Positions 5,070 through 42,910 of a stretch of DNA of 49,229 bases are shown one piece after another; position 1 is the stretch's first letter; every line of letters begins with the position of its first letter. Below the pieces are notes generated by a model. That model made no database searches. It had not been told where the DNA came from and saw only the letters and a program-made list of their open reading frames with translations. A program made the translations under genes and the position numbers. The DNA is from Oligosphaeraceae bacterium (GTDB lineage: Bacteria; Verrucomicrobiota; Lentisphaeria; Oligosphaerales; Oligosphaeraceae), in the NCBI GenBank assembly GCA_012799725.1, contig JAAZKR010000074.1, positions 1-49,229 on the forward strand, in the 5' to 3' direction.

Positions 5070-5263
5070 GGAACCCCCGATCAGTTTTTGGTGATCAGTT
5101 GTCGTTTGTTAACAGAGGCAAGCACCGCAATAATCGACTTTTCATTTTCACCGGCTCTGCCCGGATGGTTAAAAAGCCCCTTGCTGGCCGTCCTTTGTCG
5201 GTTGAAAGATTACAGTACATTAGTTGCCCAATAAATATAGCACAAATAATCAGGGGAATTATC

Positions 5264-15206: not shown

Positions 15207-16109
15207 CTATTTTTTTGCAGTCAAGCGCCGCCGGAAATTTTTAGGTGAAAGCTGATGGTATTTTTTGAAAGATGTAGAAAAATATAACTGATTTTTGTAG
15301 CCGAGGGCAGCGGCAATTTCTTTGATGGAGCGTTCACTGTGCCGCAACATCCACTCAGCCATAGTCATGCGTTTATTGGTCATATAAGCCAAAGGGGTAC
15401 AATGGCAATGATCCCTAAACATACGATAAATCGTTGCCTTGCTCACATGAAGATTCCTGGCCAAATCCTCAACCGTTAGCATCTGGTTTAGGTTATTGTC
15501 TATCATTTCCATCAACAACAGCATTTTTTCAGGTATGGGCGCACTGCTTATTTCCTTGACCAGATGTAGCAGAAGTTCATAAGCGGCTGCATCTGCCTGT
15601 CGCAAAGAGGCGCTGTCTCCCGTTAAGAGCAATTTTTCTATTGTCATGAATTTTGCTTCTATTTCATCAGGATCACTCAATTTGATGAAGGCGCAATCAT
15701 TCAGTCGCAGAGATGTGACGATGGCTTCGAGCAGCTGCCCATTAAGAATAATAGTCCGTTTACGAGCCCTTGTGGTTGTACACATCATCTCAATATCATG
15801 ATGCAGATGCACTATGAAAAGACAACCAGGTGGGGCAGCATAATGCACGCCATTGTCCGCAAATAGAAATTCTCCTTCTATGACTAGTTCAAGCGCAAAG
15901 GTGTTCGAATCACGACGATATCGGAAGACATTATCCCCCCAATATCCGATTCCAGCTGTATAGACTGATAGCACTGGGGCTACTTCAGGCTCACGATACA
16001 AAAAACGATGCCTTGGCAACCTGCCTTCATTGCATCCTCCCAAGATACTGCTTCCTTCAGATTCTATTATCTTGGATTTACGCAACAGGCATTCTATTTT
16101 ATCCTGCAT
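15207..16109 (-). CDS. AraC-family transcriptional regulator
   Basis: 300 aa. The C-terminal double HTH includes LTVEDLARNLHVSKATIYRMFRDH and IKEIAAALGYKNQLYFSTSFKKYHQLSPKNFRR. The N-terminal ligand domain is cupin-like. Confidence 0.85.
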   Translation of the reverse strand: MQDKIECLLRKSKIIESEGSSILGGCNEGRLPRHRFLYREPEVAPVLSVYTAGIGYWGDNVFRYRRDSNTFALELVIEGEFLFADNGVHYAAPPGCLFIVHLHHDIEMMCTTTRARKRTIILNGQLLEAIVTSLRLNDCAFIKLSDPDEIEAKFMTIEKLLLTGDSASLRQADAAAYELLLHLVKEISSAPIPEKMLLLMEMIDNNLNQMLTVEDLARNLHVSKATIYRMFRDHCHCTPLAYMTNKRMTMAEWMLRHSERSIKEIAAALGYKNQLYFSTSFKKYHQLSPKNFRRRLTAKK

Positions 16110-17893: not shown

Positions 17894-18628
17894 ATGAACA
17901 GCCTGAAAAAAACAACTTTTACTTTGATTGAATTGCTGGTGGTAATAGCCATCATTGCTATTTTAGCGTCAATGTTGCTGCCTGCTTTAAGCAAGGCCAG
18001 AGAAAGGGCACGTACCATCACCTGCATCAACAATCAGAAACAAATTGGCCTTGCGTTTGTCGGTTACCAGGACGATAACGTTGATTACTTCCCACAGTAT
18101 TTGGGCATCATCCACGGACAGACGTTAGAACGAACCTGGGCCTTGAATTTTCTTCTGCTCGGATATGTTGATAGTGGTCATAGCAGCAAGGCAAAAATAT
18201 TCTTCTGCCCTTCTTTTTACCCAACTGGTGGAAAAAGCCAGGGCGATAATCAGCTGAGCCATATTGGATACGGCTATAACTGGCAATATGTGGGCGGCGG
18301 CCAGGCGGCCTTCTCACTGGCGGAAGCACCCGATCGAGGCAAAAGATGCGCAAAAGTCAGTGAGTTCAAATCGCTGTCAAGTCTCTATGTTATGATGGAC
18401 GCTAAATACGTGCTGCAAGACATAGGGTGCTATCGTGTTTACTACGCCACAACCAATGATGACGGCAGCGGAATGCCTGCGGTTCGCCATGCGCAAAGAC
18501 TAAATGTCCTTTTCGGAGACATGCATGTAACCACAGAAAAAGTCGTCAATTTACTGAATCCTTGGCCTGAGCTGCAAGCGCTTTACACTTCTCCATGGTC
18601 CAGTGGCCGCAATGGGCGCGTTGATTAA
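17894..18628 (+). CDS. DUF1559-type pseudopilin-like protein (prepilin-type N-terminal methylation domain)
   Basis: 244 aa. The N-terminus is [40 protein letters not shown]. The C-terminal H-X9-DG-like motif is [19 protein letters not shown] Shine-Dalgarno sequence lies at 17881-17885. Confidence 0.85.
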
Positions 18629-18674
18629 ATCAGTTTTTCTCCATCAGCTTCCCATTCATAAAAGGGTAGGAAAC

Positions 18675-21600
18675 ATGAATCGCCAGATATTCTTCTTGGC
18701 CTTGCTTGTGGTCTTTTCGACCCATGCTGTACAGTTGAGTGATGCAGAGAAAATGTCCCTTCCCTATGCCACTGGGAAAGCCTTTATGCTGGGGGATACT
18801 GGCTGGCGCATACATGCAGGCGATGTCAAGGGATTTGAAAAAAAGGATTTTGATGACAGTAGCTGGTTCTTAGGCAATGTTTCCAGAAGTGCCAGCGGTC
18901 AGGGTATTTCAGGAAGCCCTTGGATATTGTACCGTAAAGAATTCAGCATTTCGCCGGAACTGGCAGGAAAAACGATTCTGCTGGATCTGGGTTTTATCTC
19001 TTTTTATGACGAGGCATACATAGATGGCATGCTCATCGGCAGTTATGGCACCTATCCAAAAGGTATCACCGGTTCCTCATGGATGAGGCGCCGGTATATT
19101 CTCCCGGATGCTTTGGCAGCAGGCACAGGCACGCATACGCTGGCTGTCCGAACCTACGCAGGTTACGCTTCTGGCATGTACAATGGTTCACCCTATCTCT
19201 GCGAACTAAAAAGACATATTTATCCAAAGTACATTCTCAAAGAACCAAGGTCACTGCAATGGAATCTTTCTGATGCTCAACATCTTAATCATTTTTTTCC
19301 GGGCACCAGGACATACCTGCATCCTAGATTCACCACTCTGGGCTCTCCAGGGACCATGCAACTCCAGGCGACATTGCAGGGATCAGACGGTAAAAACACC
19401 ATACTTCCCACACGTACAATCAGGCTGGTAAACGATGAGTGGAGTGATTGTGAGCCAATACCTGTTGTGTTGCCTCAAAAGCTGGGACGCTTCTCCGTCA
19501 ATCTGACGCTGACAAATGAGCATGGCATCATTAGCTGGGAACAAACACTATATGGGCGATGCAGGAACAGGCAGATATTCGAGATACCCGTTGACACGAC
19601 TTTGACGCAACTTCAGTTCCCTTTGGATGTTTCCAGCATTGCCAGTGGCAGTTTCGGCCCAAGGCATTTCAAGGCCGGCAAACTTATACATGATTTCGAT
19701 ATCCCTGACACTCGGGGGACGCTGGCGTTTTCAGTTCGTCCTTCCCCCAAGGCACCCCTAATACTCCACACTCACGTCAAACCAATGCCTAAGCCTATTC
19801 CTACTACAGAATTGCTGGCGGCAAAGGGCGCTACTTCATACGATGGTTTCCAGGATGCTTGGCTTATGGGGAGTGTGACCTCACCCCAAGCAGGCAGGTT
19901 GAACGCCATAAGCACTGTTGGAAATTGGACTAAGCTGTGCTACAAATATCAATATGAAAATATCCGCAAATTTGATTTTACCATCAGCGCCATTTCTCCG
20001 GCTTGGCGTTTGGAGACAGATTCCGAGACCTTGCGCATCTTCGATGGTATTGAAGACAATGGCGTTGGACTCCCACAATTGATAGCAATGGAATGCGATG
20101 GGGTTCCATTGATTCACCCACTGAAGACTCCTCTTGACACCAGCAAAATGAGTGCCAACTGGTTTCTTGTCTCATTTAACGGCAGCAATGGCTTCGATGC
20201 TTTCGACATCCCCTGGCTTTTTGTGCTGCAACATCGTCCGGCTTCTATCGCCATCAATAGTGGTGCACTGGAACTCGATTATGGCTGCCCGGCGGGAACG
20301 ATTCTTGCCATGCCGCTTTACGGTGTCACTTTGCAAGAAGCGCAAGTAACGGCATCATGGTCAAATGGCCTCCCTGAGGACGTCATCCAACGCTGCCGGG
20401 CCTGGTCCAGGATTCTTGCCAATGCTCCAGATACCTTAACACGGAAAGCTGCCGTGGACTTCCAGCAGGACGCCTTAAGTTATGAGGACTGCTTTACCTA
20501 TTTGCCCCTGAACGACGAATGGAGCACTATTCCAATAACCATAGCTCCAATCGCACCACTGCTGCCTCCCACCTTAATGGCAGCCAAGCATTTTTCAGGT
20601 GCTATCAGCCATCCCGCCCAGGATTTGGATTACGCAACCCTTCATGGTCCCTTGCATGCAGTTATTGGTTCAAAAGTAATTACGCAATTCAAGGGGCTGC
20701 TTCATTTTATCCCGGAAGTCAGGCAAATCACATTAAAGGAACAAAACGCTGACTCTGTCTCATTGAAGAAGGAACTGTCGTCTATCTTGGAAAAACATTT
20801 CCATATCATGCAGAAACACCCTTGGCCTGACACGGTCTGGCGCGGCAAATATGTGCCTGGCAATCAGGAGCCAGCATTCACAAACATTCTACTGACCCTC
20901 CCCTATCTTTCAAATGACCTTGCCCAACGCATTCTGGATGAATATAAAAAAGAGGTGGAAAACTATCTCCTCTATGATGGCGTCCCAAGCGATGACTTTG
21001 CAGAGAAACTGCTGCCCAAGCTCAGAAAACGCCCGGTTTCAGTCTCACTTACCACGCCCACGGGACTGAAGCTGACCACTTTCGTTCCCCAAGAAACCGA
21101 TTATGGTATTGATTCCTGCTGCTTTGAAGCTCAGCTATGCTATATGCTCTGGAGCTATGCGCATCACAGCGGCGAATGGGAGTTCGTAAAACGCAGCTGG
21201 CCACGTATCCTTGAATCAGCCAACCTGCTGCCGAACGCATATAGCTGGCCCATTTGCTGTAGCTATGACACCTTTTCCGGCATCCGTGTCGGCAATGGGC
21301 TTCAGGAAACCGGAGTCATGCATGCAGGATTCTGTGCCATAGCAAGGATGGCACATAAATTTGGGGATATCCAATTACGGGACAAAGCCAGTTATTTTGC
21401 AGCAATGCAGCTCGTGGCGCTGAATGGTGCCATGTCGATGAATGCCTATCTGCGGGAAAGACGTCCGCTTCTTCCGGAAAGCACACAGAACGGACTCTGC
21501 GAATTTAGCGAGTATTACCGCCAGTACCATTATGTGGAATTCAATGAAAACGGCGGTTTTACGCAGCATGTCATGCATGCGGAAGACACATTGAACAGTC

Positions 21601-21893
21601 CACGTTCCTTTATCATGACCACTCTTCCGGAGATAATGCGCCCATATCGTGAACTTTTCCCTGAGCTCACCGATGACTATTTCAGCCTCAACTATCGTCA
21701 TATTCCTTTCAACAGGTGCATCGCAGAGCCGCTTTCGCCCGACATGGCATTCTATATGACCAGCAAATATCCGCTCTCCATAAGACAACTTCGTGTAAGG
21801 CGCAGTTTTCTGCCTTTCTCATGGCAGGAACATGCCAATGATATCCGTGTTGAATTGGATGCGCTGAACCTTATCCAGTATGTAATACCTTGA
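18675..21893 (+). CDS. Giant secreted protein with N-terminal GH2-N-like sugar-binding jelly roll; catalytic domain unknown
   Basis: Start chosen at ATG 18675 (MNRQIFFLALLVVFSTHA, a signal peptide) rather than 18603. The segment DDSSWFLG...WILYRKEFSISPELAGKTILLDLGFISFYDEAYIDGMLIG resembles galactose-binding-like GH2 N-terminal domains. The remaining roughly 850 aa are unassignable by eye. Confidence 0.6.
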   Translation: MNRQIFFLALLVVFSTHAVQLSDAEKMSLPYATGKAFMLGDTGWRIHAGDVKGFEKKDFDDSSWFLGNVSRSASGQGISGSPWILYRKEFSISPELAGKTILLDLGFISFYDEAYIDGMLIGSYGTYPKGITGSSWMRRRYILPDALAAGTGTHTLAVRTYAGYASGMYNGSPYLCELKRHIYPKYILKEPRSLQWNLSDAQHLNHFFPGTRTYLHPRFTTLGSPGTMQLQATLQGSDGKNTILPTRTIRLVNDEWSDCEPIPVVLPQKLGRFSVNLTLTNEHGIISWEQTLYGRCRNRQIFEIPVDTTLTQLQFPLDVSSIASGSFGPRHFKAGKLIHDFDIPDTRGTLAFSVRPSPKAPLILHTHVKPMPKPIPTTELLAAKGATSYDGFQDAWLMGSVTSPQAGRLNAISTVGNWTKLCYKYQYENIRKFDFTISAISPAWRLETDSETLRIFDGIEDNGVGLPQLIAMECDGVPLIHPLKTPLDTSKMSANWFLVSFNGSNGFDAFDIPWLFVLQHRPASIAINSGALELDYGCPAGTILAMPLYGVTLQEAQVTASWSNGLPEDVIQRCRAWSRILANAPDTLTRKAAVDFQQDALSYEDCFTYLPLNDEWSTIPITIAPIAPLLPPTLMAAKHFSGAISHPAQDLDYATLHGPLHAVIGSKVITQFKGLLHFIPEVRQITLKEQNADSVSLKKELSSILEKHFHIMQKHPWPDTVWRGKYVPGNQEPAFTNILLTLPYLSNDLAQRILDEYKKEVENYLLYDGVPSDDFAEKLLPKLRKRPVSVSLTTPTGLKLTTFVPQETDYGIDSCCFEAQLCYMLWSYAHHSGEWEFVKRSWPRILESANLLPNAYSWPICCSYDTFSGIRVGNGLQETGVMHAGFCAIARMAHKFGDIQLRDKASYFAAMQLVALNGAMSMNAYLRERRPLLPESTQNGLCEFSEYYRQYHYVEFNENGGFTQHVMHAEDTLNSPRSFIMTTLPEIMRPYRELFPELTDDYFSLNYRHIPFNRCIAEPLSPDMAFYMTSKYPLSIRQLRVRRSFLPFSWQEHANDIRVELDALNLIQYVIP

Positions 21894-22075: not shown

Positions 22076-23392
22076 TTGCCAACATCACTGATCATGAATC
22101 AATTAACAAATTGCCCAATAGAATCCAACGGTGATTTTGATGTCCTGGTATGCGGTGCCGGAATGGGAGGCATTACAGCTGCCTGTATGGCGGCAGAGCA
22201 AGGGCTTGAGGTCTGCGTTTTGGAATATTTTGGCGAACCTGGCGGTATTCCTGTCAATGGTGCCCTGGGGGCCATCTCAGGTTTTTCCGATGGAGAAGTC
22301 GTTGCGGTAGCTGGTTTTCCGCAGCGATTTGCGGATGAACTGGAACGTCGCGGCGCAAGTCTGATTCAAGGTGGCGGCAGTAATATCAATCTTCCTCCTT
22401 CTGCCATTTCCCTGCTCGTTTGGGAACTGCTGGAGTTCTACAACATTCAGATGCGCTTGTATACATCTGTGATTGACACGGAAGTCGATGCAAATGGACG
22501 TATTTCTTCCGTAGTAACCAGTGCAAAGGAAGGCTTGCGGCGTGTTTCCGCCAAACTGTTTATCGATGCCACCGGAGATGGTGACCTTGCATATATGGCA
22601 GGGGCGCCATACGAAATAGGGCGCCCTTCTGATGGCAAAGTCATGAGTGCCAGCGTTATCTTCATTATAGGCGGAATTGACAAAAGCAGAATGCCTGAAT
22701 ATATGGAAGTACGGAGAATCTGGAAGTCACGCCCCCGGCCTGTCCCCATTGATCACAGTGTTTTCCAATTTGTTCCACATTCCCCGCAAAGCAACGAAAT
22801 TGCCGTAAATATGACGCATTCCCTTGATGCCGATCCTCTTATCTCTGCTGGCCTAACGAAAATCCGCAGGGATTGCATGAAACAGGCAAAATATCTGCTG
22901 GAAGAGTTTTTCAGGAAGGAAATTCCCGGTTATGAAAACGCTTGGATAAGTCGTTATGCGCCGCAGGTCGGTGTCCGGGAAAGCAGGCGTATCATGGGCG
23001 ATTACATCCTCACCGAGGAAGATGTCTTGGAAGGGCGTCGTTTTGAAGATGAAATCGCTTGCGGTATATGGGGCATTGATGTGCACAATCCGGATGGCAT
23101 TCATACGGGAGTAAGTCACTACATCACGAAACCCTATGGGATTCCTTACCGCTGCATTACGCCTAGGGGATTAAGCAACCTGTTCATCGCGGGACGGCCA
23201 ATTTCAGCGGATCATATTGCCCACTCCTCCAGCCGTATCAATGCTACATGCATGGCAATCGGCGAAGCAGCAGGCACCGCTGCGAAAGAGGCAATTGACA
23301 GGCAGTGTACCCGCATGGTGGATATTCCACAGCTGAAATCACAGCTGGCAAACAATACATACAGTTACTTCAATGTAAAAGATGAATATTGA
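22076..23392 (+). CDS. FAD-dependent oxidoreductase (PF12831-like)
   Basis: 438 aa. The N-terminal dinucleotide-binding motif is DVLVCGAGMGGITAACMAAEQG and a C-terminal IGEAAGTAA segment is present. An alternative start at ATG 22094 (MNQLTN) is equally plausible. Confidence 0.75.
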   Translation: MPTSLIMNQLTNCPIESNGDFDVLVCGAGMGGITAACMAAEQGLEVCVLEYFGEPGGIPVNGALGAISGFSDGEVVAVAGFPQRFADELERRGASLIQGGGSNINLPPSAISLLVWELLEFYNIQMRLYTSVIDTEVDANGRISSVVTSAKEGLRRVSAKLFIDATGDGDLAYMAGAPYEIGRPSDGKVMSASVIFIIGGIDKSRMPEYMEVRRIWKSRPRPVPIDHSVFQFVPHSPQSNEIAVNMTHSLDADPLISAGLTKIRRDCMKQAKYLLEEFFRKEIPGYENAWISRYAPQVGVRESRRIMGDYILTEEDVLEGRRFEDEIACGIWGIDVHNPDGIHTGVSHYITKPYGIPYRCITPRGLSNLFIAGRPISADHIAHSSSRINATCMAIGEAAGTAAKEAIDRQCTRMVDIPQLKSQLANNTYSYFNVKDEY

Positions 23393-24904: not shown

Positions 24905-27901
24905 TTAACGGATAAGAATCGACATTCCGTGAGATGGTACAGTTACCATGAATTGGCCGTCGCTCTCTGGCTTGATCACCTTCTCACTCACCATGCGTCC
25001 ATTGATGCCGTAACTGCGGCATGTAACTTGGTCGACCGGCTCATCCCATCTGAATTTGCCTGAATTGACAGTGATGATACGTTCCTTGGCGCGGATCCAT
25101 CCGGCATGAATATCCAGTATTGTGCTCGGAAACATGTCGCGCGTGGGCCATTCGTGTGGATTCTCGTGCGTTTTACGAGGCACATAGTAAGGATAATAGA
25201 GGATGCCGTTTTGGATTTTCCAGATCATGTCATCCATGAGATCCTCTTCAGTTTTCCATGTTTCGCGCCGTCCATATAGAGCTTTTCCGTGAGGGCCGTG
25301 TTGTCCCAGCATTACTGGAGTCGTAAAATGCATTTGCGCAAGGCGATCAACTCGATCACCCTCCGAAAAGCGAACGACCGGACCTTCCATTTGTTGGAGT
25401 CTTTTGATAAGAGGGGGAGAGTTAAGAATCACAATCCCATTGCGTTCAACAATATATTTATATATATTATATCTGGCGCCAGCAGACAACAAACAACAAT
25501 CGCCGTATTTCCGTATAATATTGCCCTTGTCATCGAGGTCTACTGTGTACCCATCCCAGCGGTCGTAGGTGAAACGTCCATAGTGCATGGCGGAGTTATT
25601 TGGTGTGTCGAAATACATACCGGAAAAACCGGCATCCATTGCTTTTTTTGCAACTTCCATGATATATTCGTAATAGCGATTGCCTATCATTGGATAACGG
25701 TAAACGTGGTATTGTCCAAGCTCGCCGCCTTCGTATGTGCTTTTGGGGTTTGCTCCAACACGAGCACGGGCATAAACAGGATGATTTCCGTCCTGATCTA
25801 CAATTGCTGAATCGGCCAATGGGTCGGGTTTGCCCTCACGATTCCGCCATGAAAACGTTGTTTGAAATTGCAAAAGGTATTTACAGTCTGGGACAAATTT
25901 TCTATTGTTGTTTTTCCATTCTATGAATGATTCCATCGCTTTATCAATCGTGAAATCGTCATCAGGATTTTGGGCGGCATTGAACCAGGTCCAGCCCACT
26001 GCAGAGTCAGCACCGTAATTTTTGGCGCGTATCTGGAACAATTCTCCATCGAAACTATCCCACCAGAGCATAGGTCCAGGAATAGTTGTCAAGTTTACAA
26101 GCCAAGCTCGACGTACGGCATTCACAAAGTCAAAGTAATCGGTCGAGGGGGTCATATACAGACCCCATTCAAGGATATACTTTTTCCCGGCATCAAAGCC
26201 AAGATGCGCGGTTTCGACTTTACCCATGAAAGGTGTCGCTTGATAACTGCATTGCAGTCGCAGCAGGTCGTCCTCCAGCGCCAGTCCAAGGCCGTTATCC
26301 TTGAAAGCCCAGAAAATGGACGAGTTCGCGTTAGGATTATTGTGACTGCTCAACATTTGTTGATATAAGGGCGAACCATTTTTCCGGATGTTTTCTGCCC
26401 GAGTATCTAAAAAGACATTGATCCCGGTACGCATGCCAAGGGGGGCTCCTGAAATATTCTCAATGCAATCACTCACTCGAATTGTTTGAGGATTGCATTT
26501 GACGGTACGGGTTATCTTATAAAATTTCCCCGAAAAATCAATTTTAAAGCCATCATTGGTTGTGCCAACCGTGCCTTGCCAGCTGTTTTCCGTCTTGATC
26601 TTTTCAGCCCCTGCGCAAAAAAATCCATTTGCACCACCCTCTGGATAGGAGAAGAAGCTCTCGACAAAATATTTCTGTATGCCGGTTTGTATTTGCAGAC
26701 CTCCGTCCGGCGCAATGGTAAGTGTGTAATCCTCACATTTTTTTTCTGTGCTGCTGTCAACGAATTGGCGGGTTTCTATCTGCCGAGCCGGCGAGAGAGT
26801 GGTGCAGGCATCGGGCACGTAACCGAGCTCCAGTTGATGAACCAATAGAAAAGGGTTTCCGTCTTTAAAACCTCGTCTTTTGACAAAATAGTCGTATTGT
26901 GCCAGATTGCGGAATGTCAATTTATTGTCTATATCTTTTAGAAGATCGTCACAATCAAGATAGTACCAGTTGACTTGTCGTGTCTCTGCAGAATTACTCT
27001 TGTCTGCGGGAAGTCCCCATTTGGAACCATGCATTACAGTCAGACGTCCCTGGTCATTGAGAGTTGTTGCGGCACTGCCCAGATAATTAAGGCCTCTATT
27101 GAGCAAGCGGCTTTGCCGGTCAGATGTTTCTGACGAAACCATCTGATCATTGACTATAATTTGCAAATCGGAGGCATGTCCGGACCCGCCATATGCCAAG
27201 CGGGCGCGAAAACGAATAGCCCTTTTCCAACCTGAACGTGGCGGAAAGTTTACGGCATCGATGCTTTGCTCACCGCCGCCAACTGCCAGTGCCATATTTG
27301 GATAAGAACGTATAGAGTCGAAGCTACGTTCAATCGGATTAGATAACTCGGTAACATCTTTAGTGTAGACTTTAATTTCTCCTATGTGAAGCAGAAAAGG
27401 GACGTGAGACTTTTCGTTTTTGCCTGGGGTTGGAGCGTTATTGGTAATCAGCAACTCGTTCTCGCCTTTTGTCAGGCTGTCTGTTAAATCAAGCGCATAT
27501 CTGTAAAGGGAATTATAATCTTCCGGAACGTAAATTGCTTCGATTGGTTCATCAGTAGGATATGATACGACATTCCATATTCCACCCTTGGTGTAATCCA
27601 GCCCACTACCATGAAAAGAGACAGCTTCCCGGTTGACTAGACGCATCACTTGAGAACCCGGTGGGAATATTTCATTGCCAATCACTTTTTGATTGAGTGA
27701 AATTTTCATAAACCATTCGCCGCCAATCTTCTGTGGACGCTCAAAACGTGCTGTGAATTCAACGATTGTTCGCTTCTCCAATGAGGGTTCAATTTCATTA
27801 AAACTGATACTATGGCTTTGCCCTGGCTTAAGAATGATCGCTGATGCCCAGACCTGTATTGTCGCTGCCAGCGCGTAGATAAGTAACAACCTTTTTTTCA
27901 T
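24905..27901 (-). CDS. Giant secreted protein of unknown function (two tandem beta-sandwich-like modules plus unassigned C-terminal two-thirds)
   Basis: Start chosen at ATG 27901 (MKKRLLLIYALAATIQVWA, a signal peptide) rather than 27946. An internal duplication is visible in the N-terminal 380 aa. I recognised no catalytic motif. Confidence 0.55.
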   Translation of the reverse strand: MKKRLLLIYALAATIQVWASAIILKPGQSHSISFNEIEPSLEKRTIVEFTARFERPQKIGGEWFMKISLNQKVIGNEIFPPGSQVMRLVNREAVSFHGSGLDYTKGGIWNVVSYPTDEPIEAIYVPEDYNSLYRYALDLTDSLTKGENELLITNNAPTPGKNEKSHVPFLLHIGEIKVYTKDVTELSNPIERSFDSIRSYPNMALAVGGGEQSIDAVNFPPRSGWKRAIRFRARLAYGGSGHASDLQIIVNDQMVSSETSDRQSRLLNRGLNYLGSAATTLNDQGRLTVMHGSKWGLPADKSNSAETRQVNWYYLDCDDLLKDIDNKLTFRNLAQYDYFVKRRGFKDGNPFLLVHQLELGYVPDACTTLSPARQIETRQFVDSSTEKKCEDYTLTIAPDGGLQIQTGIQKYFVESFFSYPEGGANGFFCAGAEKIKTENSWQGTVGTTNDGFKIDFSGKFYKITRTVKCNPQTIRVSDCIENISGAPLGMRTGINVFLDTRAENIRKNGSPLYQQMLSSHNNPNANSSIFWAFKDNGLGLALEDDLLRLQCSYQATPFMGKVETAHLGFDAGKKYILEWGLYMTPSTDYFDFVNAVRRAWLVNLTTIPGPMLWWDSFDGELFQIRAKNYGADSAVGWTWFNAAQNPDDDFTIDKAMESFIEWKNNNRKFVPDCKYLLQFQTTFSWRNREGKPDPLADSAIVDQDGNHPVYARARVGANPKSTYEGGELGQYHVYRYPMIGNRYYEYIMEVAKKAMDAGFSGMYFDTPNNSAMHYGRFTYDRWDGYTVDLDDKGNIIRKYGDCCLLSAGARYNIYKYIVERNGIVILNSPPLIKRLQQMEGPVVRFSEGDRVDRLAQMHFTTPVMLGQHGPHGKALYGRRETWKTEEDLMDDMIWKIQNGILYYPYYVPRKTHENPHEWPTRDMFPSTILDIHAGWIRAKERIITVNSGKFRWDEPVDQVTCRSYGINGRMVSEKVIKPESDGQFMVTVPSHGMSILIR

Positions 27902-27952: not shown

Positions 27953-28696
27953 TTATTGTTTCCCCACACCTGTGATCCCGAGCACCAGAACAACATTTCC
28001 ATCTGTGGGAAGATACTTCAGTCCGAGAGTTTGTATTAGCCCCTTCGAGGTATATTTACGATATAGACCGCTTCCGACATCAGCATAATCTTGCCATTTA
28101 ACAATTGCCGCATGGCCGTCCAGAAAGGAAAAAATGAAATTGTTTCTGTGAAGGATAATGGGATGAGTTTTATCATTGCCGCTGTTATGCATTGGTGGCC
28201 ATGGTCCCCCTTGATATCCAGTGCCAGCGTAATTCAAGGTCGAAGCATCCCCGGTCAATGGATAAAATCCTGGCTTCGGTATAATTTTATCTCTCAACAC
28301 AAAAGGATAGCTACCAGAATTGATGAAGTCTCCACTCTTGAAAAAACCATAAACCTTACTTGTTCCATGCGGGCCTGAATCGTCGTTCTTGATGAACCGC
28401 CGCTGTTCCGGACAAACAAGAACATTTTTTGATATGCCTTCTGACATCAATCCTGCTTGATAGAGCGCATAGTTCCAAAACAGGGAGGAAGAATGCTGCA
28501 TCTTAACAAATCCGCCAGCATCTAGAGAATACATGAGGAGCATTTGCGCGACTTGTTTCTGATTGCTGAGGCAGGTAGCAGCACGTGCACGCGAACGCGC
28601 ATTTTGCAATGCCGGGAGCAACATTGACGCCAAAATCGCTATGATCGCAATTACTACCAGCAGCTCAATCAATGTAAAAGATTTCTTCATGTTCAT
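27953..28696 (-). CDS. DUF1559-type pseudopilin-like protein
   Basis: 247 aa. The N-terminus is M(NM)[45 protein letters not shown]. The canonical H-X9-DG motif is [13 protein letters not shown]. It lies 51 nt upstream of the giant ORF on the same strand. Confidence 0.85.
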
Positions 28697-29375: not shown

Positions 29376-30206
29376 ATGTTGTTTACAGCAAAATACCGAT
29401 ATAATGTTTCTTTACCGCATGAAAATCTATATAGGCCGGAAACCGTTTTGATTAATTCTCCGCTGCATGTGCGTTCTTGTGGGCACTATCGTACGGCAAA
29501 GGGCTGGCGGGATAGAGCGATTGCCAAGGATTTTCTGCAACTGTACTGGGGTGTAGCCGGTAGCGGTCTCTTTCGGGCGGAAGGGAGGGAATTCATTCTC
29601 AAGCCTAATACGGTATTTTTTTTCCTGCCGGGAGATGTTCATGATATCACTGCACTGGAGGATGGCTTCGAATACCAGTGGATTGCTTTCGATGGCGATA
29701 ACCTCGATAATACCATCATACAATTTAACATCAAGCACGAAGTGAGATATGCAGGTAAGGCTCCGCTGGAAATTTTTGAAGAAGCCCGTAACAATCTGTG
29801 CAACTTCTCCCGACACGGCGAGTACCTCGCCTCCGCTAACGGGTTTACTCTGCTTTCCATGGCTTTTGCCGGTGCCACTCTGCAAGGTTCGGTTTTTGAG
29901 CGGTTCCTCAGGTATATACGAAAGCATTATGCAGATTCAAGTCTGACGATAGAGGCAATTGCCAATGCCTTAAAAATCAACCGGATAACCCTGTTACGTG
30001 CTGTTATCAAGGCAAGTGGCATGTCTCCCAAAAAATATCTTGATATGTTGCGTTTGCGGGAAGCGCTCTCGTTGTTACGTGAATCAAACTTCAGCATCAA
30101 GGAGATAGCGGCCTATACAGGTTTTTCTGGCAGCAATTATTTTGCCAAATTCATCCTTAAAAAAACCGGGGAATCGCCTTCTTTTCATCGGACAAGCCGG
30201 GACTGA
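29376..30206 (+). CDS. AraC-family transcriptional regulator
   Basis: 276 aa with an AGGAG Shine-Dalgarno sequence at 29364-29368. The C-terminal HTH pair includes LTIEAIANALKINRITLLRAV and IKEIAAYTGFSGSNYFAKFILKKTGESP. Confidence 0.85.
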   Translation: MLFTAKYRYNVSLPHENLYRPETVLINSPLHVRSCGHYRTAKGWRDRAIAKDFLQLYWGVAGSGLFRAEGREFILKPNTVFFFLPGDVHDITALEDGFEYQWIAFDGDNLDNTIIQFNIKHEVRYAGKAPLEIFEEARNNLCNFSRHGEYLASANGFTLLSMAFAGATLQGSVFERFLRYIRKHYADSSLTIEAIANALKINRITLLRAVIKASGMSPKKYLDMLRLREALSLLRESNFSIKEIAAYTGFSGSNYFAKFILKKTGESPSFHRTSRD

Positions 30207-30260: not shown

Positions 30261-31592
30261 TTATTGGATGTGCCGGCTTTTCATTGCTTGTTTGGCTGCG
30301 CCGGATGCCGCTTCTTCGGGCATTTGCGAAATCTGAAGCGGCAGGCCGAATTCCTGCTCGATGGCGAACTGTATGCTTTTCACCAGTCGCACTGCATTTC
30401 CGGAGCCAATGACCACTTTTCTTGTGCGCAGCAAATCAACCGGGAATGGGCGCATCAGATTACGAACGATTCCGACAGCCAGAGCAGCGGCAAGTTTTCC
30501 GGGTGTAGTATTGTTTAATGTCAATCCGCACACTGTGCCACGCAACGCGGAGTCGTGACGTTCGCCGAGAAAATGTGGCAACACCACAAGTTCTGTTTTT
30601 TCTGTCTGAAGTTCCTCGAGTGCAAGTTCATCTAAACGATCCAGCAACTCATGCCTAGGCAATTCCGCATCGCCCAGATCACGCCGAAAGTTGTTGATCG
30701 TGTCAGCCAGCCAGGCAAAAGCTGAGCCGCCGCAGAGCGGTGCGGACACCAGAAGAAAGCGTCCACCGGGAAATGGGCGGATTTCCAGCTCCGCCGGGAT
30801 ATTTGCCGGCATGGAGTCAACAACTGCTGAAAGTTGCGCTCCTGTGCCGAGAGTCAGATACAATTCCTGTTTGACATCGCATCCAGTACCGAGTACCGAT
30901 GCCTGATTGTCACCGATCGCATTGACCACTGGAATCCCCGCCGCAAGGCCGTATTTCGTGCTTGCTTCTGCTGACATCCGCCCGGCTACGGAACCGGAGG
31001 CGCGGATGGATGGCAGGATGGCATTCGGGATGGACAGTTTTGCCAGCGCGTCAAAGGCCCAGTCGTTCCGGGTATAATCATAGATACCCCAGCTTGCCGC
31101 GTGAGTGGGGTCCGTCAGTATGACATTATTGCCGGTCAGTTCCGCAACCAACATATCACTGATCGTTGCGGCTTGCATGGTATCATCAAGCCGTCCTTCT
31201 GCGGCCAGCCTTGCCAAGGTCAAGCCGCCGAAGCCCTCGTGGAGTGACAATCCTGAAACACGGTTGAACTCGCTGATCATCTCTTGGCCGCAACGGCAAT
31301 CCTGCCACGTGACCAGTGGCGACAATCCCTTTTTGCCACGGATCATAAGCGAGTGCATTTGTCCGGTAATGCCTACTGCGCCGACCTCCTGACGAACCTG
31401 TTGCGGAAGTTCCTCGAGCAAATTCCGGACACAATCGAATATCTTTCCGGCATCCTGTTCGGCGGCGCCGGGCACTGCCGTTTCGAGTTTGCCATGGTGT
31501 ACTCGGCTGACAACTTTCTCTACCGTTCCAGCTTCGTTGATAACCACCACCGCAACTTTTGTTGTGCCTAAGTCGATTCCAATCGTTTTCAT
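30261..31592 (-). CDS. FGGY-family carbohydrate kinase (sedoheptulokinase/xylulokinase-like)
   Basis: 443 aa. The N-terminal actin-fold phosphate-1 motif is MKTIGIDLGTTKVAVVV. The motifs GITGQMHS and LTLGTGAQL and a C-terminal VIGSGNA segment are present. The start lies 3 nt after the activase stop. Confidence 0.8.
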   Translation of the reverse strand: MKTIGIDLGTTKVAVVVINEAGTVEKVVSRVHHGKLETAVPGAAEQDAGKIFDCVRNLLEELPQQVRQEVGAVGITGQMHSLMIRGKKGLSPLVTWQDCRCGQEMISEFNRVSGLSLHEGFGGLTLARLAAEGRLDDTMQAATISDMLVAELTGNNVILTDPTHAASWGIYDYTRNDWAFDALAKLSIPNAILPSIRASGSVAGRMSAEASTKYGLAAGIPVVNAIGDNQASVLGTGCDVKQELYLTLGTGAQLSAVVDSMPANIPAELEIRPFPGGRFLLVSAPLCGGSAFAWLADTINNFRRDLGDAELPRHELLDRLDELALEELQTEKTELVVLPHFLGERHDSALRGTVCGLTLNNTTPGKLAAALAVGIVRNLMRPFPVDLLRTRKVVIGSGNAVRLVKSIQFAIEQEFGLPLQISQMPEEAASGAAKQAMKSRHIQ

Positions 31593-31595
31593 TTT

Positions 31596-32366
31596 TCACC
31601 CAAAACAGACAGCATTGATATGATCTTTGCGCAAACGCACAACAAATTGTTCCAGGTTTTCACGCGGCGGCGGTTGGACATCGCGGCAGGCCGACTCTCG
31701 TCCCAGCGCCATATATTTGGGCTCGGCAAGGTGATGTTGCCGCAATAGTTCCACATGAAGTTCTTCTTGCGGCCTGAGTGAGAGCAGTTCGAGCAGAAAT
31801 TCGTGCAGCTTCTGTTGCGCCGGGAGATCGTCGTTAAGCCCCGAAACAACCGGAATCCGCACTGTGAAAGAAGGCTGATGCTGGGCTGCGAAACGCAGAT
31901 TATCTTTGCAAAGCTCCAGTAAAGCGACATTCGGTGAAACGCGTTGCCTGAAACGCTCCAGCTCAAGGGTCTTCAGATCGGCATAGAGAAAATCGACCAT
32001 CATTGCCGCGTCGCGGAAACCGGGAGTAGATGCGTTGCTCTCCATGGCAGTATGGATTTTGGCCTCCCGCAACAATCGGAGCGCCTCGAGCAATTCCGCG
32101 ATCTGCAAGGTTGGTTCTCCGCCGCCGAAAGTCACTCCATTGATGAAAGAGCGCGCTTTCCGGGCCTTGCGGACAATTTCCCCGACGGTGATTTCATGCC
32201 CCACCGTTATGGTGCGTTCCGGGTAGCGGAGAATTTCCGGCTGCGGCGAGATGCTTTCCGGCGCTCCACACCAGTCGCAACGAAAATTACACCCTTTGAG
32301 ATAAAAAATAAGCCGGGTGCCGGGGCCATCATAATTATCACTATAGCCGGAATCAAAAATGATCAT
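31596..32366 (-). CDS. Glycyl-radical enzyme activating protein (radical SAM, short PflA-like form)
   Basis: The ORF track extends to 32549, but that start overlaps the regulator gene. The ATG at 32366 overlaps the regulator stop (ATGA). The product MIIFDSGYSDNYDGPGTRLIFYLKGCNFRCDWCGAPE carries the CX3CX2C cluster motif and the SAM-binding segment FGGGEPTLQ. There is no second Cys-rich ferredoxin-like insert. Confidence 0.85.
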   Translation of the reverse strand: MIIFDSGYSDNYDGPGTRLIFYLKGCNFRCDWCGAPESISPQPEILRYPERTITVGHEITVGEIVRKARKARSFINGVTFGGGEPTLQIAELLEALRLLREAKIHTAMESNASTPGFRDAAMMVDFLYADLKTLELERFRQRVSPNVALLELCKDNLRFAAQHQPSFTVRIPVVSGLNDDLPAQQKLHEFLLELLSLRPQEELHVELLRQHHLAEPKYMALGRESACRDVQPPPRENLEQFVVRLRKDHINAVCFG

Positions 32367-33313
32367 GCAAAGGGGTCCTGTGCCAGAAAACGATATTGCC
32401 GCGCTTTCCAGTTCTCCCCCAAACGGCGTTGATCGCCCAGGGATTTGAAGCATCCTTTTGCCAATTCGTCCATAGGCTGACGGTAGCTGATGATTCCTTT
32501 CGCTCTGCTCTCCGGGAGTCCATCGATACTGAAAACCGGAACCCCACACTCTGCGAACATCAGTGCGGTTGGATCATTGACTGCGAAAATAGCACTGTGT
32601 TCGGGGAAAATTTCGGGCAGTTCAGTTGAAAAATCAATGCCGTGCGCGGCACATTCCTTGCGGCAGCATTGCAGCCGTTCATGGTTGCTGTCAATATCCA
32701 ATCCCGTTGGATCGACAAAGTAAACTCTGCGAATCCCGCGCTCTTTGGCTTTTTCAAAAAGTGCGCGCATGGCGCCGGCATTGTCTAAACAGACATAATC
32801 GGCAATTTTGCCTGGGTTGATCCGGTCAAAAAAGACCATATTGACCCCGAGAATGCGCAACCGGAAAAACAATTCGAGATCCAGTGTCCGGTCAATTCCC
32901 CAGACCACCATGTCACGGATGCCATGCAAAGCCAGCCGAATGACTGCTTCATTCTGCTGTTGCCCGGAACTGCCCGGTTCCAGCACGGTGATCACATCGC
33001 GTTTGGCGGCCTCATTGCAGAGCGTGCTCAAAAAACTGCGGACAAAATGATCCTCGATCGGCAATATCGCAGCGATCTTGGAGATTTTGCCTTCTGACGC
33101 AGCTAATTTTGTATTGACGATGCTGCCAACTTTCTGCTTGCGCAGGATGGCGTGATTGTCCACCAGTTTGGCGAAGGCGCGCCTGATCGTAGTGCGGCTG
33201 GCGCCAAACCGTTGCATGGCCTCATTTTCAGTCAGAAATCTCTGACCCGGCAAAAAACGTCCTTTGAGGATATCCTTAAACAAAGACTGGTAAATTTTTT
33301 CCGTAAGTTGCAT
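32363..33313 (-). CDS. AraR-like chimeric regulator (GntR-type winged HTH + LacI/periplasmic-binding-protein-like sugar-binding domain)
   Basis: Start chosen at ATG 33313 (MQLTEKIYQSLFKDILKGRFLPGQRFLTENEAMQRFGASRTTIRRAFAKLV, a GntR HTH), which avoids overlap with the GRE gene. The C-terminal roughly 240 aa have a Peripla_BP-like alternating beta-alpha pattern. Confidence 0.8.
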   Translation of the reverse strand: MQLTEKIYQSLFKDILKGRFLPGQRFLTENEAMQRFGASRTTIRRAFAKLVDNHAILRKQKVGSIVNTKLAASEGKISKIAAILPIEDHFVRSFLSTLCNEAAKRDVITVLEPGSSGQQQNEAVIRLALHGIRDMVVWGIDRTLDLELFFRLRILGVNMVFFDRINPGKIADYVCLDNAGAMRALFEKAKERGIRRVYFVDPTGLDIDSNHERLQCCRKECAAHGIDFSTELPEIFPEHSAIFAVNDPTALMFAECGVPVFSIDGLPESRAKGIISYRQPMDELAKGCFKSLGDQRRLGENWKARQYRFLAQDPFA

Positions 33314-33335
33314 ATAACGATGACATTTTTCAGGA

Positions 33336-35663
33336 TCAGCTCGCTCGCTCGTCGGCATCCAGCCTGGCAATAATGTCGTTCTGGATGGCGGGTGACAAAT
33401 CCAGAAAATTGACAAACGTGCCGTGGATACGCATGATGTAAATACCCCCGGGAGCGTATTTCTTGGGATTTTCCAACACCTTGCGTAAATTCACTTTGGA
33501 ATCGATATTAAAATAAACGTAGAATGGGGTATTGTCCAACTCCTCTTTGTAGCCAAAAAGCGGCTTGATGATTTTTTCGGTGAAAATCACCATTTTTTCA
33601 TCGGTATTTTTGCCATTGCGGAAGACTTGCGGGGAGATTCCCAGATGTGCGGCATAGCCACCAAGAAAGTCGCTGTAATCAAGTTTTCTTTCACTCAAAA
33701 GCATATCTATCCTGCCGCCCATGGCATTTTCAGGTCTTGGGTCGATGCCGTAGCCGAGCATTTCACGCGCGGCTCTGCCGTCTGGCGTGGCGCCGACATG
33801 GTATCCATACAACAGATGAGTGCTTGGCGTCGAGAAGTCCGGCAGGAACGGGTTTCCGGCTGGATTGCGCAATGCATGCACTTTGGCGCTGGTCATTCTG
33901 GCGATTCGGACCGCCACGGAATCCGGTTCATCGAGGTCATTGCCGTATTTTGGCTGTTTTTTCAGGTATTCTCGCAAGTCTGCTGCTCCGGCGAAATTCT
34001 TTTGCAGAGCATCAAGCAGTTCTGCTGCGAACCCCTTCCGTTCTGCCATGCCATGCTTGACGGCGACGAGAGAATCTGCAACCACGCTCAAGCCGTGAAT
34101 CAAGCAGCCGCTGGCATGGTAGGTCACGCCGGGGTGTTTTACATCCCGCATGTCGCGTCCGGTTTTCAGTCCTTCCATCAATGCGGAAGTGAAAGGAACC
34201 GGCATAAGGGCAATCGCTTCTGTACAACCGTTCGCCGCCTTTTCCATTTTTACAAGAATCTTATCCAGCTGCTTAAAGAATGCCGTTTCCAGATCAGCGA
34301 GCAGCTCATCCAGTCCGGCATAGCCAAGTTCAGCATAGCCGCAGGCAAGTTTCGCTCCGGAGAGCAGGGAGCGTCCGTCGTTGATGGTCAGCTCGAGTAC
34401 CTTGGCAAGGTTGAGCCAGCTGTTGGTAGTATTGGCGCTTTCGCGTCCCATAATAAGCGGTTCTTGGCAGCCGGCAATGGAGTAATCCGGCCAATCTGCT
34501 TCAGCAATCTTTTTGCGTTCGAGCACCCGGAAGACCATGTCGTCATTAAAGAATGACGGCGTGGAATGTCCGGGCGTGAAGAAGAAACGTCCCATTGCCT
34601 GATAGAGGGTCTCTGGCGTATTGCGGTGTAGTTTGACCGATAGCGCCGGCTGAGGATTGTTGGACAGGAAGAACGCATCCAGCACAATGTAGGTCATCTC
34701 TGTGGTCAGATCATTGCCGGCGACATCGCGTCCGCCGACCATAATATTCTGCGAGATCGCCCAGCAACGTTCTCCAACCATCAGAAAGGCCAGAAAGGCG
34801 CGCACAAGCTGCACTGCTTCATCATGGCTGGTATCCAACAAATAGGGCTGCAAGATGCGGTCCAGGTTCCCGACTGAAAAAGCATAGGGGTTTGGTGCCT
34901 GTTCCAAAGTCATTGCCTGCCAGAGCAATGCGGCGCTTTGTACGGCTTCATGCAAATTCGTTGCTCCATGGGAGGGGACGCGGCGGCAGCTTTTGACGAT
35001 CTGAGCAAGCCGAAAAACTTCTTCAGGTTGATCGGCGCGTTCCTTCATGAGCTGCTCGGCGAGGTCTGCATAGCGCATAGCCAGAATTTCTGCGGCGGCA
35101 AGCGCTGCATGGATATGAGCGGCTTCAGGAATGAATTTCTGACCTTTGATGCCATCCTTCAGGATTGGGCGCAAATCGGGAATCGTGTGCCCGGTGACCG
35201 GCTCAACAAAAAAGGCGACTTCTTCAGTCAGCTTGCCGGTTTCGGCATAGACTTTCTGCAACGCCTTGACATAGGGGGTGTTTTTATAATAACTGCGGAC
35301 TTTCTCGATGCGTTGCTGCGGAAAAGTATCATCCGGCGTAAGGTCATCATAGATGGCAACCGGATCACAGTAGCCGGCGAAAGTTTCAACCCTGAATGCC
35401 GGGTTAATCAGTGCATAGCTGGGACTGAAAGCGTCATCCTGAGTCCCGGCAATCACACTGCCGGGTGGAATCGACAAGCGCATACGCTCGATACAACGAC
35501 AAAGAATCGCCGCTTGCACTTCCTCTGCATCAGGATCAGCAAACTCCTGACGCACATGCATCTTAATCTCCTGAAATTCAAACCACCCGGTCATCCGTTG
35601 CTGTGAAAATTTGTACTCGAGCAACTGTTGAATACCCTTGGAAAAAATATCGCTTCTATCCAT
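33336..35663 (-). CDS. Glycyl radical enzyme, PFL2/eliminase-like, substrate unknown
   Basis: 775 aa from ATG 35663, which is preceded by AAAGGGG. The ORF-track start at 35693 is a TTG. GRE blocks are present: FSVGNLDRILQPYL, NIMVGGRDVAGNDLTTEMTY, PALSVKLHRNTP, FFNDD, the Cys loop YSIAGCQEPLIMG, GATPDGR, and the C-terminal glycine loop IMRIHGTFVNF. Confidence 0.9.
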   Translation of the reverse strand: MDRSDIFSKGIQQLLEYKFSQQRMTGWFEFQEIKMHVRQEFADPDAEEVQAAILCRCIERMRLSIPPGSVIAGTQDDAFSPSYALINPAFRVETFAGYCDPVAIYDDLTPDDTFPQQRIEKVRSYYKNTPYVKALQKVYAETGKLTEEVAFFVEPVTGHTIPDLRPILKDGIKGQKFIPEAAHIHAALAAAEILAMRYADLAEQLMKERADQPEEVFRLAQIVKSCRRVPSHGATNLHEAVQSAALLWQAMTLEQAPNPYAFSVGNLDRILQPYLLDTSHDEAVQLVRAFLAFLMVGERCWAISQNIMVGGRDVAGNDLTTEMTYIVLDAFFLSNNPQPALSVKLHRNTPETLYQAMGRFFFTPGHSTPSFFNDDMVFRVLERKKIAEADWPDYSIAGCQEPLIMGRESANTTNSWLNLAKVLELTINDGRSLLSGAKLACGYAELGYAGLDELLADLETAFFKQLDKILVKMEKAANGCTEAIALMPVPFTSALMEGLKTGRDMRDVKHPGVTYHASGCLIHGLSVVADSLVAVKHGMAERKGFAAELLDALQKNFAGAADLREYLKKQPKYGNDLDEPDSVAVRIARMTSAKVHALRNPAGNPFLPDFSTPSTHLLYGYHVGATPDGRAAREMLGYGIDPRPENAMGGRIDMLLSERKLDYSDFLGGYAAHLGISPQVFRNGKNTDEKMVIFTEKIIKPLFGYKEELDNTPFYVYFNIDSKVNLRKVLENPKKYAPGGIYIMRIHGTFVNFLDLSPAIQNDIIARLDADERAS

Positions 35664-39422: not shown

Positions 39423-39441
39423 AAACAGGACAGGAGGAATA

Positions 39442-42820: not shown

Positions 42821-42910
42821 AATAATCTTGGCGTAGTATGACCGTCCACAAACCATTTTTTGTCCACGGAAAGCACGGAAAACTTGGCGTGGGCTAATGC
42901 CAACAACCCA

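Follow-up and report, generated by a model that had tools for sequence, protein, structure and literature searches.

Type IV pilins and the pseudopilins of type II secretion systems (T2SSs), such as PilA and GspG, carry a short basic leader followed by a phenylalanine at position +1, a glutamate at position +5, and a hydrophobic α1 helix of approximately 20 residues. Their heads are globular α/β domains that pack on the C-terminal half of α1 (α1-C), in most cases with a disulfide, and the proteins depend on a prepilin peptidase, an assembly ATPase, and a platform protein. Prepilin-like proteins with a DUF1559 domain and an H-X9-DG motif are among the largest paralog families in bacteria of the Planctomycetes–Verrucomicrobia–Chlamydiae (PVC) group. 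The function of these proteins is unknown (PMC10632474, PMC4807772), and two of the 68 DUF1559 copies in Planctopirus are essential (PMC10632474). Here, we analyzed a stretch of 49,229 nucleotides from Oligosphaeraceae bacterium (contig JAAZKR010000074.1, hereafter the window), in which each of three pilin-like genes immediately precedes, in the same orientation, one of the three largest open reading frames (ORFs), which encode exported proteins designated big1, big2, and big3. A first-pass annotation, made from the letters of the window alone, had proposed that each such pair is a functional unit. Conserved synteny, co-divergence, and directional enrichment support this proposal over a chance adjacency.

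The pilin-like proteins of the window share the N-terminal features of type IV pilins and T2SS pseudopilins but lack the Gly or Ala residue at position −1, and their heads match no solved pilin. Their genes are single and scattered in catabolic operons beside enzymes, rather than gathered in gsp or pil clusters. With the DUF1559/H-X9-DG proteins of Planctomycetota and Verrucomicrobiota (PF07596, TIGR04294), they have in common the N-terminus, the LPAL..AR..A...C segment, the H-X9-DG motif, and the expansion into many paralogs, whereas those proteins keep Gly or Ala at −1 and show no enrichment of large downstream genes. At the level of the locus, the arrangement resembles the polysaccharide-utilization loci (PULs) of Bacteroidota. 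Those loci, too, are substrate-specific and bring a sugar-responsive regulator together with exported enzymes, with glycosidases of the cytoplasm or periplasm, and with a non-catalytic envelope protein that is highly diversified and specific to the locus. The present loci differ in that their enzymes are not lipoproteins, a pilin-like protein forms the diversified component, regulation is by one-component AraC or LacI/GntR proteins, and there is neither a SusC/TonB-dependent transporter nor a SusD fold; a Pfam scan of the window genes detected no SusC, SusD, or TonB-dependent gene. The loci work like PULs but are not Sus-type PULs, and the comparison of the pilin-like protein with a SusD-type partner, drawn in the first-pass annotation, holds as an analogy only, given that the region contains none of these genes or any other transporter gene.

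Two further systems link pilin-type proteins to carbohydrates. In the archaeal bindosome (the Bas system of Sulfolobus; PMC3047682), a non-filament protein of sugar use has a type-IV-pilin-type N-terminus, by which a pilus-like assembly machine presumably handles it. Its heads are the binding proteins of ABC transporters encoded beside them, whereas the heads described here are small, match no solute-binding protein (SBP) family, and have exported enzymes as their genomic neighbors; no ABC transporter was detected in this region of the window. A polysaccharide both induces the PilA of C. bescii and is bound by it (bioRxiv 10.1101/614800), and the gene is located near carbohydrate-active enzyme (CAZyme) and adhesin loci; however, this PilA is the one major pilin of one pilus locus, whereas here many paralogs are each tied to one enzyme gene. 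In the open-access literature, we found no description of a pairing of pilins with exported enzymes or of the loss of the glycine at −1, which does not in itself prove that these are unpublished, and DUF1559 was always mentioned as a protein of unknown function.

A six-frame scan showed that the window contains exactly three prepilin-type genes, with no fourth copy. Given the approximately 36 genes in the window, we roughly estimate the chance of all three falling in front of the three largest ORFs at about 1e-4. The members of the three pairs are as follows.

17894-18628 (+): pilin-like gene 1, 244 aa; leader MNSLKKTT, Thr at −1, C-terminal H-X9-DM
18675-21893 (+): big1, 1072 aa, exported (signal-peptide-like N-terminus), no Pfam family
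24905-27901 (−): big2, 998 aa, exported (signal-peptide-like N-terminus), no Pfam family
27953-28696 (−): pilin-like gene 2, 247 aa; leader MNMKKS, Ser at −1, exact H-X9-DG
42098-42820 (+): pilin-like gene 3, 240 aa; leader MRKL, Leu at −1, exact H-X9-DG
42821-43317 (+): spacer of pair 3, 497 nt, with tandem repeats and hairpins
43318-47301 (+): big3, 1327 aa, exported (signal-peptide-like N-terminus), with a putative GHL15-like barrel (by family) and a CBM9-like C-terminus

The pairing was retained across considerable sequence divergence. The pilin-like gene remained adjacent in 12 of 15 orthologous contexts while other operon genes were rearranged, and the enzymes of loci with the adjacency kept were 36–54% identical. 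All four big1 contexts, including that of the window, have an adjacent pilin-like gene, and in the three big1 relatives with sufficient flanking DNA (L001–L003; 41–42% identity), the order divergent AraC regulator, GH63-like gene, pilin-like gene, big1, and oxidoreductase was preserved throughout, with a PHP-like gene between the last two in two of them. For big3, a pilin-like gene lies directly upstream in six of seven contexts (in the homologs L171, L172, L173, L174, and L007/8, at 36–48% identity), even though genes for DUF4434, glycoside hydrolase (GH) families GH2 and GH130, and a LacI regulator switch positions around it; GH2 recurs in these operons. For big2, the pilin-like gene is adjacent in two of four contexts and one gene away in another, and one relative (L004) keeps the order AraC, pilin, big2.

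Within these orthologous loci, the two members of a pair diverged together. The pilin and enzyme identities were 82% and 83% between L001 and L002, 64% and 71% between L001 and L003, 54% and 54% between window pair 2 and L004, and 38% and 46% between window pair 2 and L005, and the heads reached the twilight zone where the enzyme identity was about 40%. The head of pilin 3 was 32–34% identical over 174–200 residues (E = 1e-19 to 1e-23) to heads encoded beside big3 homologs in other genomes (L171 and L172), and had no detectable similarity to heads 1 and 2 of its own genome. The co-divergence, together with a head that matches foreign heads located beside big3 homologs but not the other two of its own genome, indicates that the pairs are old and cognate. 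In the independent sample described below, a correlation of head and partner similarity covered too few orthologous pairs to be informative.

To compare the pairing with its expected background, we used loci retrieved with the pilin alignment alone from one genome per GTDB species; the best 80 loci were kept, a selection that favors relatives of the query, and 36 of these were from Lentisphaerota (taxa as given in the record titles). A downstream gene was counted when it lay on the same strand within 600 nt. In the Lentisphaerota loci, the gene following the pilin-like gene had a median length of 720 aa, against 343 aa in the background; it was at least 700 aa in 15 of 29 cases (background, 44 of 310, 14%; p = 8.9e-6), at least 900 aa in 7 of 29 (background, 15 of 310; p = 1.1e-3), and signal-peptide-like in 16 of 26 (background, 54 of 291, 19%; p = 6e-6). 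Adjacency at the rate expected by chance, which the first-pass annotation had named as grounds for abandoning the functional unit, is thus rejected for these loci. The upstream gene showed no enrichment at either length (p = 0.44 and 0.45), with a weak shift in the rank test (p = 0.03). The downstream genes encoded domains such as CBM9, GH123_N, DUF4838, Laminin_G_3 (concanavalin A (ConA)-like), sulfatase, rhamnosidase, polysaccharide lyase, and heparinase. The same-strand upstream gene was a Peripla_BP_3/GntR/LacI sugar regulator in 12 of 27 loci, which makes the regulator, the pilin-like gene, and the exported enzyme a recurrent triad. These regulators are approximately 340–390 aa in length, with a GntR/LacI helix-turn-helix domain and Peripla_BP_3 (e.g., L013:8845-9957, L018:1429-2538, L032:8891-9985, and L086:8886-9992). 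No downstream size enrichment was observed in the loci of Verrucomicrobiota, Planctomycetota, and other phyla (median 246 aa).

This difference between phyla coincides with a difference at the prepilin cleavage site. A glycine (rarely an alanine) at position −1 is a key determinant of cleavage by the prepilin peptidase, as in PilA and PilD of P. aeruginosa. In the window, the residue before FTLIE is Thr (17915-17917), Ser (28679-28681, − strand), or Leu (42107-42109), and neither Gly nor Ala was found at −1 in any of the nine genes of the window and its orthologous loci. Among 42 independent Lentisphaerota copies, only two had Gly, one Ala, and seven Ser, the remainder having Lys, Arg, Pro, Thr, Asn, Asp, or other residues, whereas 43 of 44 copies from other phyla had Gly (23) or Ala (20), and one had Ser. 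When the genome and metagenome samples were pooled (160 loci, L011–L170), downstream genes of at least 700 aa followed 15 of 31 copies without Gly/Ala and 5 of 52 copies with Gly/Ala (p = 1e-4), and signal-peptide-like downstream genes followed 21 of 31 and 16 of 52, respectively (p = 1e-3). The metagenome sample, which consisted mostly of short contigs and Gly/Ala-type copies and provided six evaluable cases without Gly/Ala, was used only in this pooled test. The copies from other phyla showed a weak enrichment of exported downstream genes and none of large ones. The pairing with large exported proteins is therefore tied to the Lentisphaerota-type copies without Gly/Ala and does not extend to the DUF1559 proteins of PVC bacteria as a whole. 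The loss of Gly/Ala implies either a peptidase of different specificity or an uncleaved membrane anchor, and the pilin-like protein may remain in the latter form, with its N-terminus inside and its C-terminus outside.

The three pairs are not copies of one cassette, although the first-pass annotation described them as a recurring cassette in three copies. Big1, big2, and big3 are mutually non-homologous (BLASTP for all pairs; hhalign for big2/big3 and big1/big3), and the three heads of the window have no significant similarity to one another. The pilin N-terminus that they share differs at synonymous sites, which excludes gene conversion, and a duplicated cassette is ruled out on all three counts. 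They are instead three different cognate pairs. Other elements of that description were accurate, including the coordinates, the threefold same-strand arrangement, the prepilin-type genes of about 240 aa, all of which match prepilin models, and the downstream ORFs of 998–1327 aa, all of which have signal-peptide-like N-termini.

The gaps between the pilin-like gene and its partner are 46 nt in pair 1 and 51 nt in pair 2, with no terminator-like hairpin in either, making co-transcription of these pairs plausible. The 497-nt gap of pair 3 is filled with repeats, as previously noted: an 11-nt tandem repeat, CACGGACTTTA, is present in 8.6 copies at 42910-43016, with CACGGACGGGG variants, followed by a 9-nt repeat, GATCGGTCG, in 2.7 copies at 43021-43044, and two perfect hairpins at 43084-43104 and 43124-43142. 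Co-transcription of this pair is doubtful on these features. A known RNA element or repeat was considered for the window, and no Rfam match was found.

All three pilin-like proteins have a short basic leader, Phe+1, Glu+5, and a hydrophobic α1 helix of approximately 20 residues. A stretch of 17 residues within this N-terminus is identical in the three window genes and six positional orthologues, and the helix is conserved as protein and not as DNA. Two of the three proteins pass the Pfam N_methyl threshold (pilin 1 at 22 bits); the remaining one does not (19.7 versus 21.2 bits), yet it passes NCBIfam TIGR02532. The NCBIfam equivalogs of GspG/H/I, ComG, and PilA reached at best 30–40 bits (GspG cut-off, 88.85) and matched only the N-terminal 60 or so residues, and in the PDB, the profile of the pilin family matched residues 1–66 of T. 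thermophilus PilA (6xxd, E = 6e-17) and also GspG (5wda). By their N-terminus, the pilin-like proteins are placed in the type IV pilin/pseudopilin superfamily.

Membership of the DUF1559/H-X9-DG family is, as judged from profile matches, partial. Copies 1 and 3 pass the threshold of PF07596 (DUF1559, SBP_bac_10; 31.5 and 32.9 versus 23.3 bits) and copy 2 falls below it, and the match in the window is confined to model positions 1–38 of 268 (2–38 in pilin 1). Among related Lentisphaerota proteins, 16 of 20 pass, likewise partially (positions 1–45 of 268). The DUF1559 label of the first-pass annotation thus holds for the first 40 or so residues after the transmembrane helix and for two of the three proteins, and not for the remainder of the sequence. 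Its H-X9-DG assignment is exact for copies 2 and 3, and copy 1 has H-X9-DM. The exact motif occurred in 23 of 42 Lentisphaerota copies and 24 of 44 copies of other phyla, and its His and Asp are invariant or nearly so in two family alignments (A4 and A8). TIGR04294, the NCBIfam model of the H-X9-DG prepilin-associated C-terminal domain, gave no match to the window pilins at E ≤ 0.01.

The conservation of these proteins is concentrated at one end. The first 45 or so residues are invariant among all paralogs, and the head of about 195 aa is hypervariable and locus-specific, with conserved landmarks limited to two invariant cysteines (C40 and C101 in the numbering of A8), an invariant Tyr, a Cys-Pro, and the His and Asp of H-X9-DG. 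No PDB sequence match was found beyond residue 70 or so, and no known binding-protein, SBP, or carbohydrate-binding module (CBM) family matched the heads in Pfam, NCBIfam, or PDB profile searches. The heads are rich in Tyr (6.9% versus 3.2%), Trp (2.7% versus 1.3%), Asn (6.8% versus 4.0%), Ser/Thr, and Gly and contain few charged residues, a composition that provides weak evidence for extracytoplasmic, carbohydrate-facing domains. With 240–330 aa, they are roughly double the length of GspG. Variant arrangements of the pilin-like gene were also observed upstream of big3 homologs. In L171 (2685-5984), a GH2 ORF continues in frame into the pilin-like gene without an intervening stop codon, such that MKKH-FTLIELL lies at residue 864 of the called product of 1099 aa; either the gene call merged two genes, or the read-through is genuine. 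In L172, two pilin-like genes lie in tandem (4353-5066 and 5103-5816) with heads that are 52% identical, and the N-terminus of the second is degenerate (NFTLTELCIVIVVSAVLL), as though freed from the constraint on the helix.

As single sequences, big1, big2, and big3 matched nothing in Pfam, NCBIfam, or the PDB. They occur almost exclusively in Victivallales, and their named homologs are from Lentisphaerae and Victivallales metagenome-assembled genomes (MAGs). A search of 5.8 billion clustered proteins yielded only seven relatives of big1. The first 300 or so residues of big1 resemble the sugar-binding N-terminal and immunoglobulin (Ig) domains of GH2-type enzymes (PDB profile, E = 1.5e-7; Foldseek, E = 2.5e-11); the GH2 TIM-barrel catalytic domain was not matched, nor was there a Pfam GH2 match. 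AlphaFold modeling of big1 and big2 relied on alignments of six to seven sequences and gave low confidence (mean pLDDT of 57 and 54, respectively). In the model of big1, residues 400–1070 or so aligned with BhGH81 (5t49) over 612 columns (Foldseek, E = 1e-9; TM(target) 0.39; helical region mostly <50 pLDDT), which suggests that the C-terminal two-thirds form a β-sandwich and an (α/α)6 glycosidase similar to GH81, a family of endo-β-1,3-glucanases.

For big2, the model resembled only a β-supersandwich, typical of GH63/65/94/15-type enzymes. The protein has five close relatives, and its C-terminal core of about 600 aa defines a large family without a Pfam model, comprising 1045 clusters (50% identity) at E ≤ 1e-3 and 497 at E ≤ 1e-30 (HMMER), some members of which are fused to Laminin_G_3 (ConA-like lectin) or GH42M domains. 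Big3 has 33 relatives and no Pfam match of its own; its family contains GHL15 in 7 of 34 members and CBM9_1 in 5 of 34, and the family profile matched the CBM9 structure 1i82 at the C-terminus (E = 1.7e-4). Big3 is therefore, by its family, a putative GHL15-like glycosidase barrel with a CBM9-like C-terminus. Immediately after big3 homologs, a conserved signal-peptide protein of 266 aa that belongs to no Pfam family is encoded at L007:13975-14775, L173:9939-10739, and L008:4634-5434; it is absent after big3 of the window. The carbohydrate-binding-like modules that the first-pass annotation assigned to all three ORFs are thus borne out for big1 (the GH2-type domain) and big3 (the CBM9-like domain), and not for big2, for which there is only the low-confidence resemblance. 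All three can be regarded as members of unclassified families that are exported and probably act on carbohydrates.

The pairs are embedded in a region of sugar catabolism that spans approximately 15 to 47 kb of the window (Pfam scan of the window genes). The neighboring features are as follows.

15207-16109 (−): AraC-family regulator, divergent from operon 1; position conserved in L001–L003
16279-17853 (+): GH63-like/MGH1-like glycosidase without a signal peptide; opens the conserved operon 1
22076-23392 (+): flavin adenine dinucleotide (FAD)-dependent oxidoreductase without a signal peptide; closes the conserved operon 1; 61% identity to L001–L003
23413-24810 (−): GH4 glycosidase of the cytoplasmic type, on the same strand as big2 and 94 nt downstream of it
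29376-30206 (+): AraC-family regulator, divergent from pair 2; the orthologous pair in L004 likewise has a divergent AraC gene
36903-41946 (+): two GH2 (β-mannosidase-like) genes without signal peptides, upstream of pilin 3 with a 151-nt gap

The glycosidase and AraC neighbors described in the first-pass annotation are therefore present at pairs 1 and 2, beside each of which a divergent AraC gene lies, but pair 3 has no AraC gene and is preceded by the two GH2 genes. Signal or anchor sequences in the 15–47 kb region are restricted to the three big ORFs and the three pilin-like proteins; the GH63-like, GH4, and both GH2 proteins, an MPI-type cupin also encoded in this region, the FGGY kinase, and the FAD-dependent oxidoreductase have none. 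Since the glycosidases, the cupin, and the kinase all lack signal peptides, they would need an imported substrate, and the Pfam scan found no transporter or SBP gene at 15000-47300. Between pairs 2 and 3, at 30261-35693 (−), a PFL-like glycyl-radical enzyme of 785 aa, a radical-SAM activase, a GntR-type regulator, and the FGGY sugar kinase probably constitute an anaerobic pathway for a sugar or sugar derivative. The window has a GC content of about 49%. Its left side contains housekeeping genes (MoxR, hisD, argS, lnt, and hydrolases), and at the right end, a 136-aa PIN_3 toxin and a 107-aa DUF6364 protein are encoded by overlapping genes at 48127-48857 (−), probably a toxin–antitoxin pair.

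How the two members of a pair might work together can be proposed from these sequence features. We consider the chances about even that each pair is a cognate two-protein envelope module, in which the pilin-like protein would serve the exported enzyme next to it as an adaptor, a tether, or a binder of glycan. In such a module, located in a sugar-regulated catabolic operon of a Victivallales-type (Lentisphaerota) bacterium, the product of the second gene would be a large Sec-exported, enzyme-like protein acting on carbohydrate, and the head of the pilin-like protein would physically bind this enzyme, the glycan that it attacks, or both. The helix, including Glu+5, is invariant across paralogs with unrelated heads, which points to a common interaction partner of the helix; the invariant N-terminus, whether its leader is cleaved or not, would dock all the paralogs into one common membrane machine or filament base. 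The helix would then keep the complex at the inner membrane, or else on a structure of the pseudopilus type. In this way, the exported enzyme would be kept back, placed in position, or transferred to a T2SS-like machine, and its products would supply the cytoplasmic glycosidases of that operon. In a bolder extension, which we consider possible rather than probable, the Lentisphaerota would have turned the type-IV-pilin scaffold into a dedicated set of partners, one for each exported glycan enzyme, no longer cleaved and with an invariant helix plugging into a single shared machine. This would be a new PUL architecture replacing SusC/D or binding-protein systems, and the partner set might act as an enzyme-presenting or glycan-reeling pseudopilus.

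Several observations weigh against the cognate module. No pilin-like gene accompanies one big3 homolog (L009/10), which instead lies beside a divergent sugar ABC transporter that has a binding protein of its own. A big2 relative of 28% identity (L006) also lacks a pilin-like gene, and in L005, which has the order LacI-type regulator, pilin, GH42-like, big2, the GH42-like gene intervenes. In L004 (13556-18793, −), the order is reversed, with GH38 and a 1361-aa CBM9/CBM4_9 protein preceding a DUF1559 pilin-like gene. The genes of pair 3 may be transcribed separately, given their long gap with repeats and hairpins, and the fold matches of big1 and big2, made with low-confidence models, are merely suggestive. 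No T2SS, type IV pilus, or prepilin-peptidase gene was found within the window, and the loss of Gly/Ala at −1 makes canonical prepilin processing, and with it assembly into a classical pseudopilus, less likely. In the independent sample, genes were called with a simple longest-ORF script and signal peptides with a hydrophobicity heuristic that visibly undercounts them, the background consisted of the flanks of pilin-like genes, and some loci shared a MAG.

The main rival to the cognate module is that the pilin-like protein is a glycan receptor only, comparable to an SBP, SusD, or the archaeal bindosome, whose head binds the locus-specific oligo- or polysaccharide and not the enzyme, while the enzyme is merely co-regulated. 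It would act as a capture protein anchored in the membrane or on a filament, and might even form the tip of a pseudopilus whose retraction draws glycan chains into the periplasm. A receptor of this kind would suit the aromatic, Asn-, and Ser/Thr-rich heads, which are similar in composition to CBMs, and the absence of an SBP or transporter gene from the 15–47 kb region despite its cytoplasmic glycosidases. There is precedent both for a polysaccharide-binding pilin, in the PilA of C. bescii, which binds xylan and cellulose (bioRxiv 10.1101/614800), and for sugar-binding proteins with pilin-type signal peptides, in the Sulfolobus bindosome (PMC3047682), and a substrate specificity shared with the enzyme would also yield co-divergence. 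The pilin-less big3 homolog beside a sugar ABC transporter fits the same explanation, but it is a single case; the heads have no match among the known families of binding proteins or CBMs, and a receptor leaves unexplained why the exported gene immediately downstream is preferred over any other gene of the operon. We consider a receptor-only role a real but minority possibility.

The homology of the invariant helix with those of GspG and PilA, and the exported nature of the neighboring proteins, would also be expected if the pilin-like proteins were ordinary T2SS or type IV filament subunits that raise the secretion capacity with enzyme output, with no partner specificity. Such a generic supply would not need a locus-specific head for each enzyme, nor would co-divergence be expected, and the size of the proteins, their scores far below the GspG/H/I equivalog cut-offs, and the lost Gly at −1 make it improbable. 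Finally, with a family as large as this one (68 paralogs in Planctopirus, PMC10632474; >400 confirmed matches in each scan of a genome or metagenome collection) and with large exported genes being common, adjacency might be coincidental or a relic of operon shuffling, and approximately half of the sampled pilin-like genes are indeed not followed by a large gene. However, the enrichment in size and export is directional (p = 1e-5 to 1e-8), with an upstream control that is null at both length thresholds and only weakly shifted in rank, the adjacency persists in orthologous contexts despite rearrangement, and the heads co-diverge with the enzyme, so that the absence of any functional link is highly improbable.

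Victivallales are common degraders of glycans in the gut and rumen. To our knowledge, they have no Sus-type systems, and we know of no account of how their envelope handles polysaccharides. The pairing flags three unannotated protein families as likely new carbohydrate-active enzymes, one of them with >1000 clusters, and the loss of the cleavage-site glycine raises the question of how a pilin-type protein is handled without canonical processing. The cognate pairing also provides a testable lead on DUF1559, a very large family, and if its members are indeed dedicated partners of exported glycan enzymes, this would be the first function assigned to the DUF1559/H-X9-DG superfamily.

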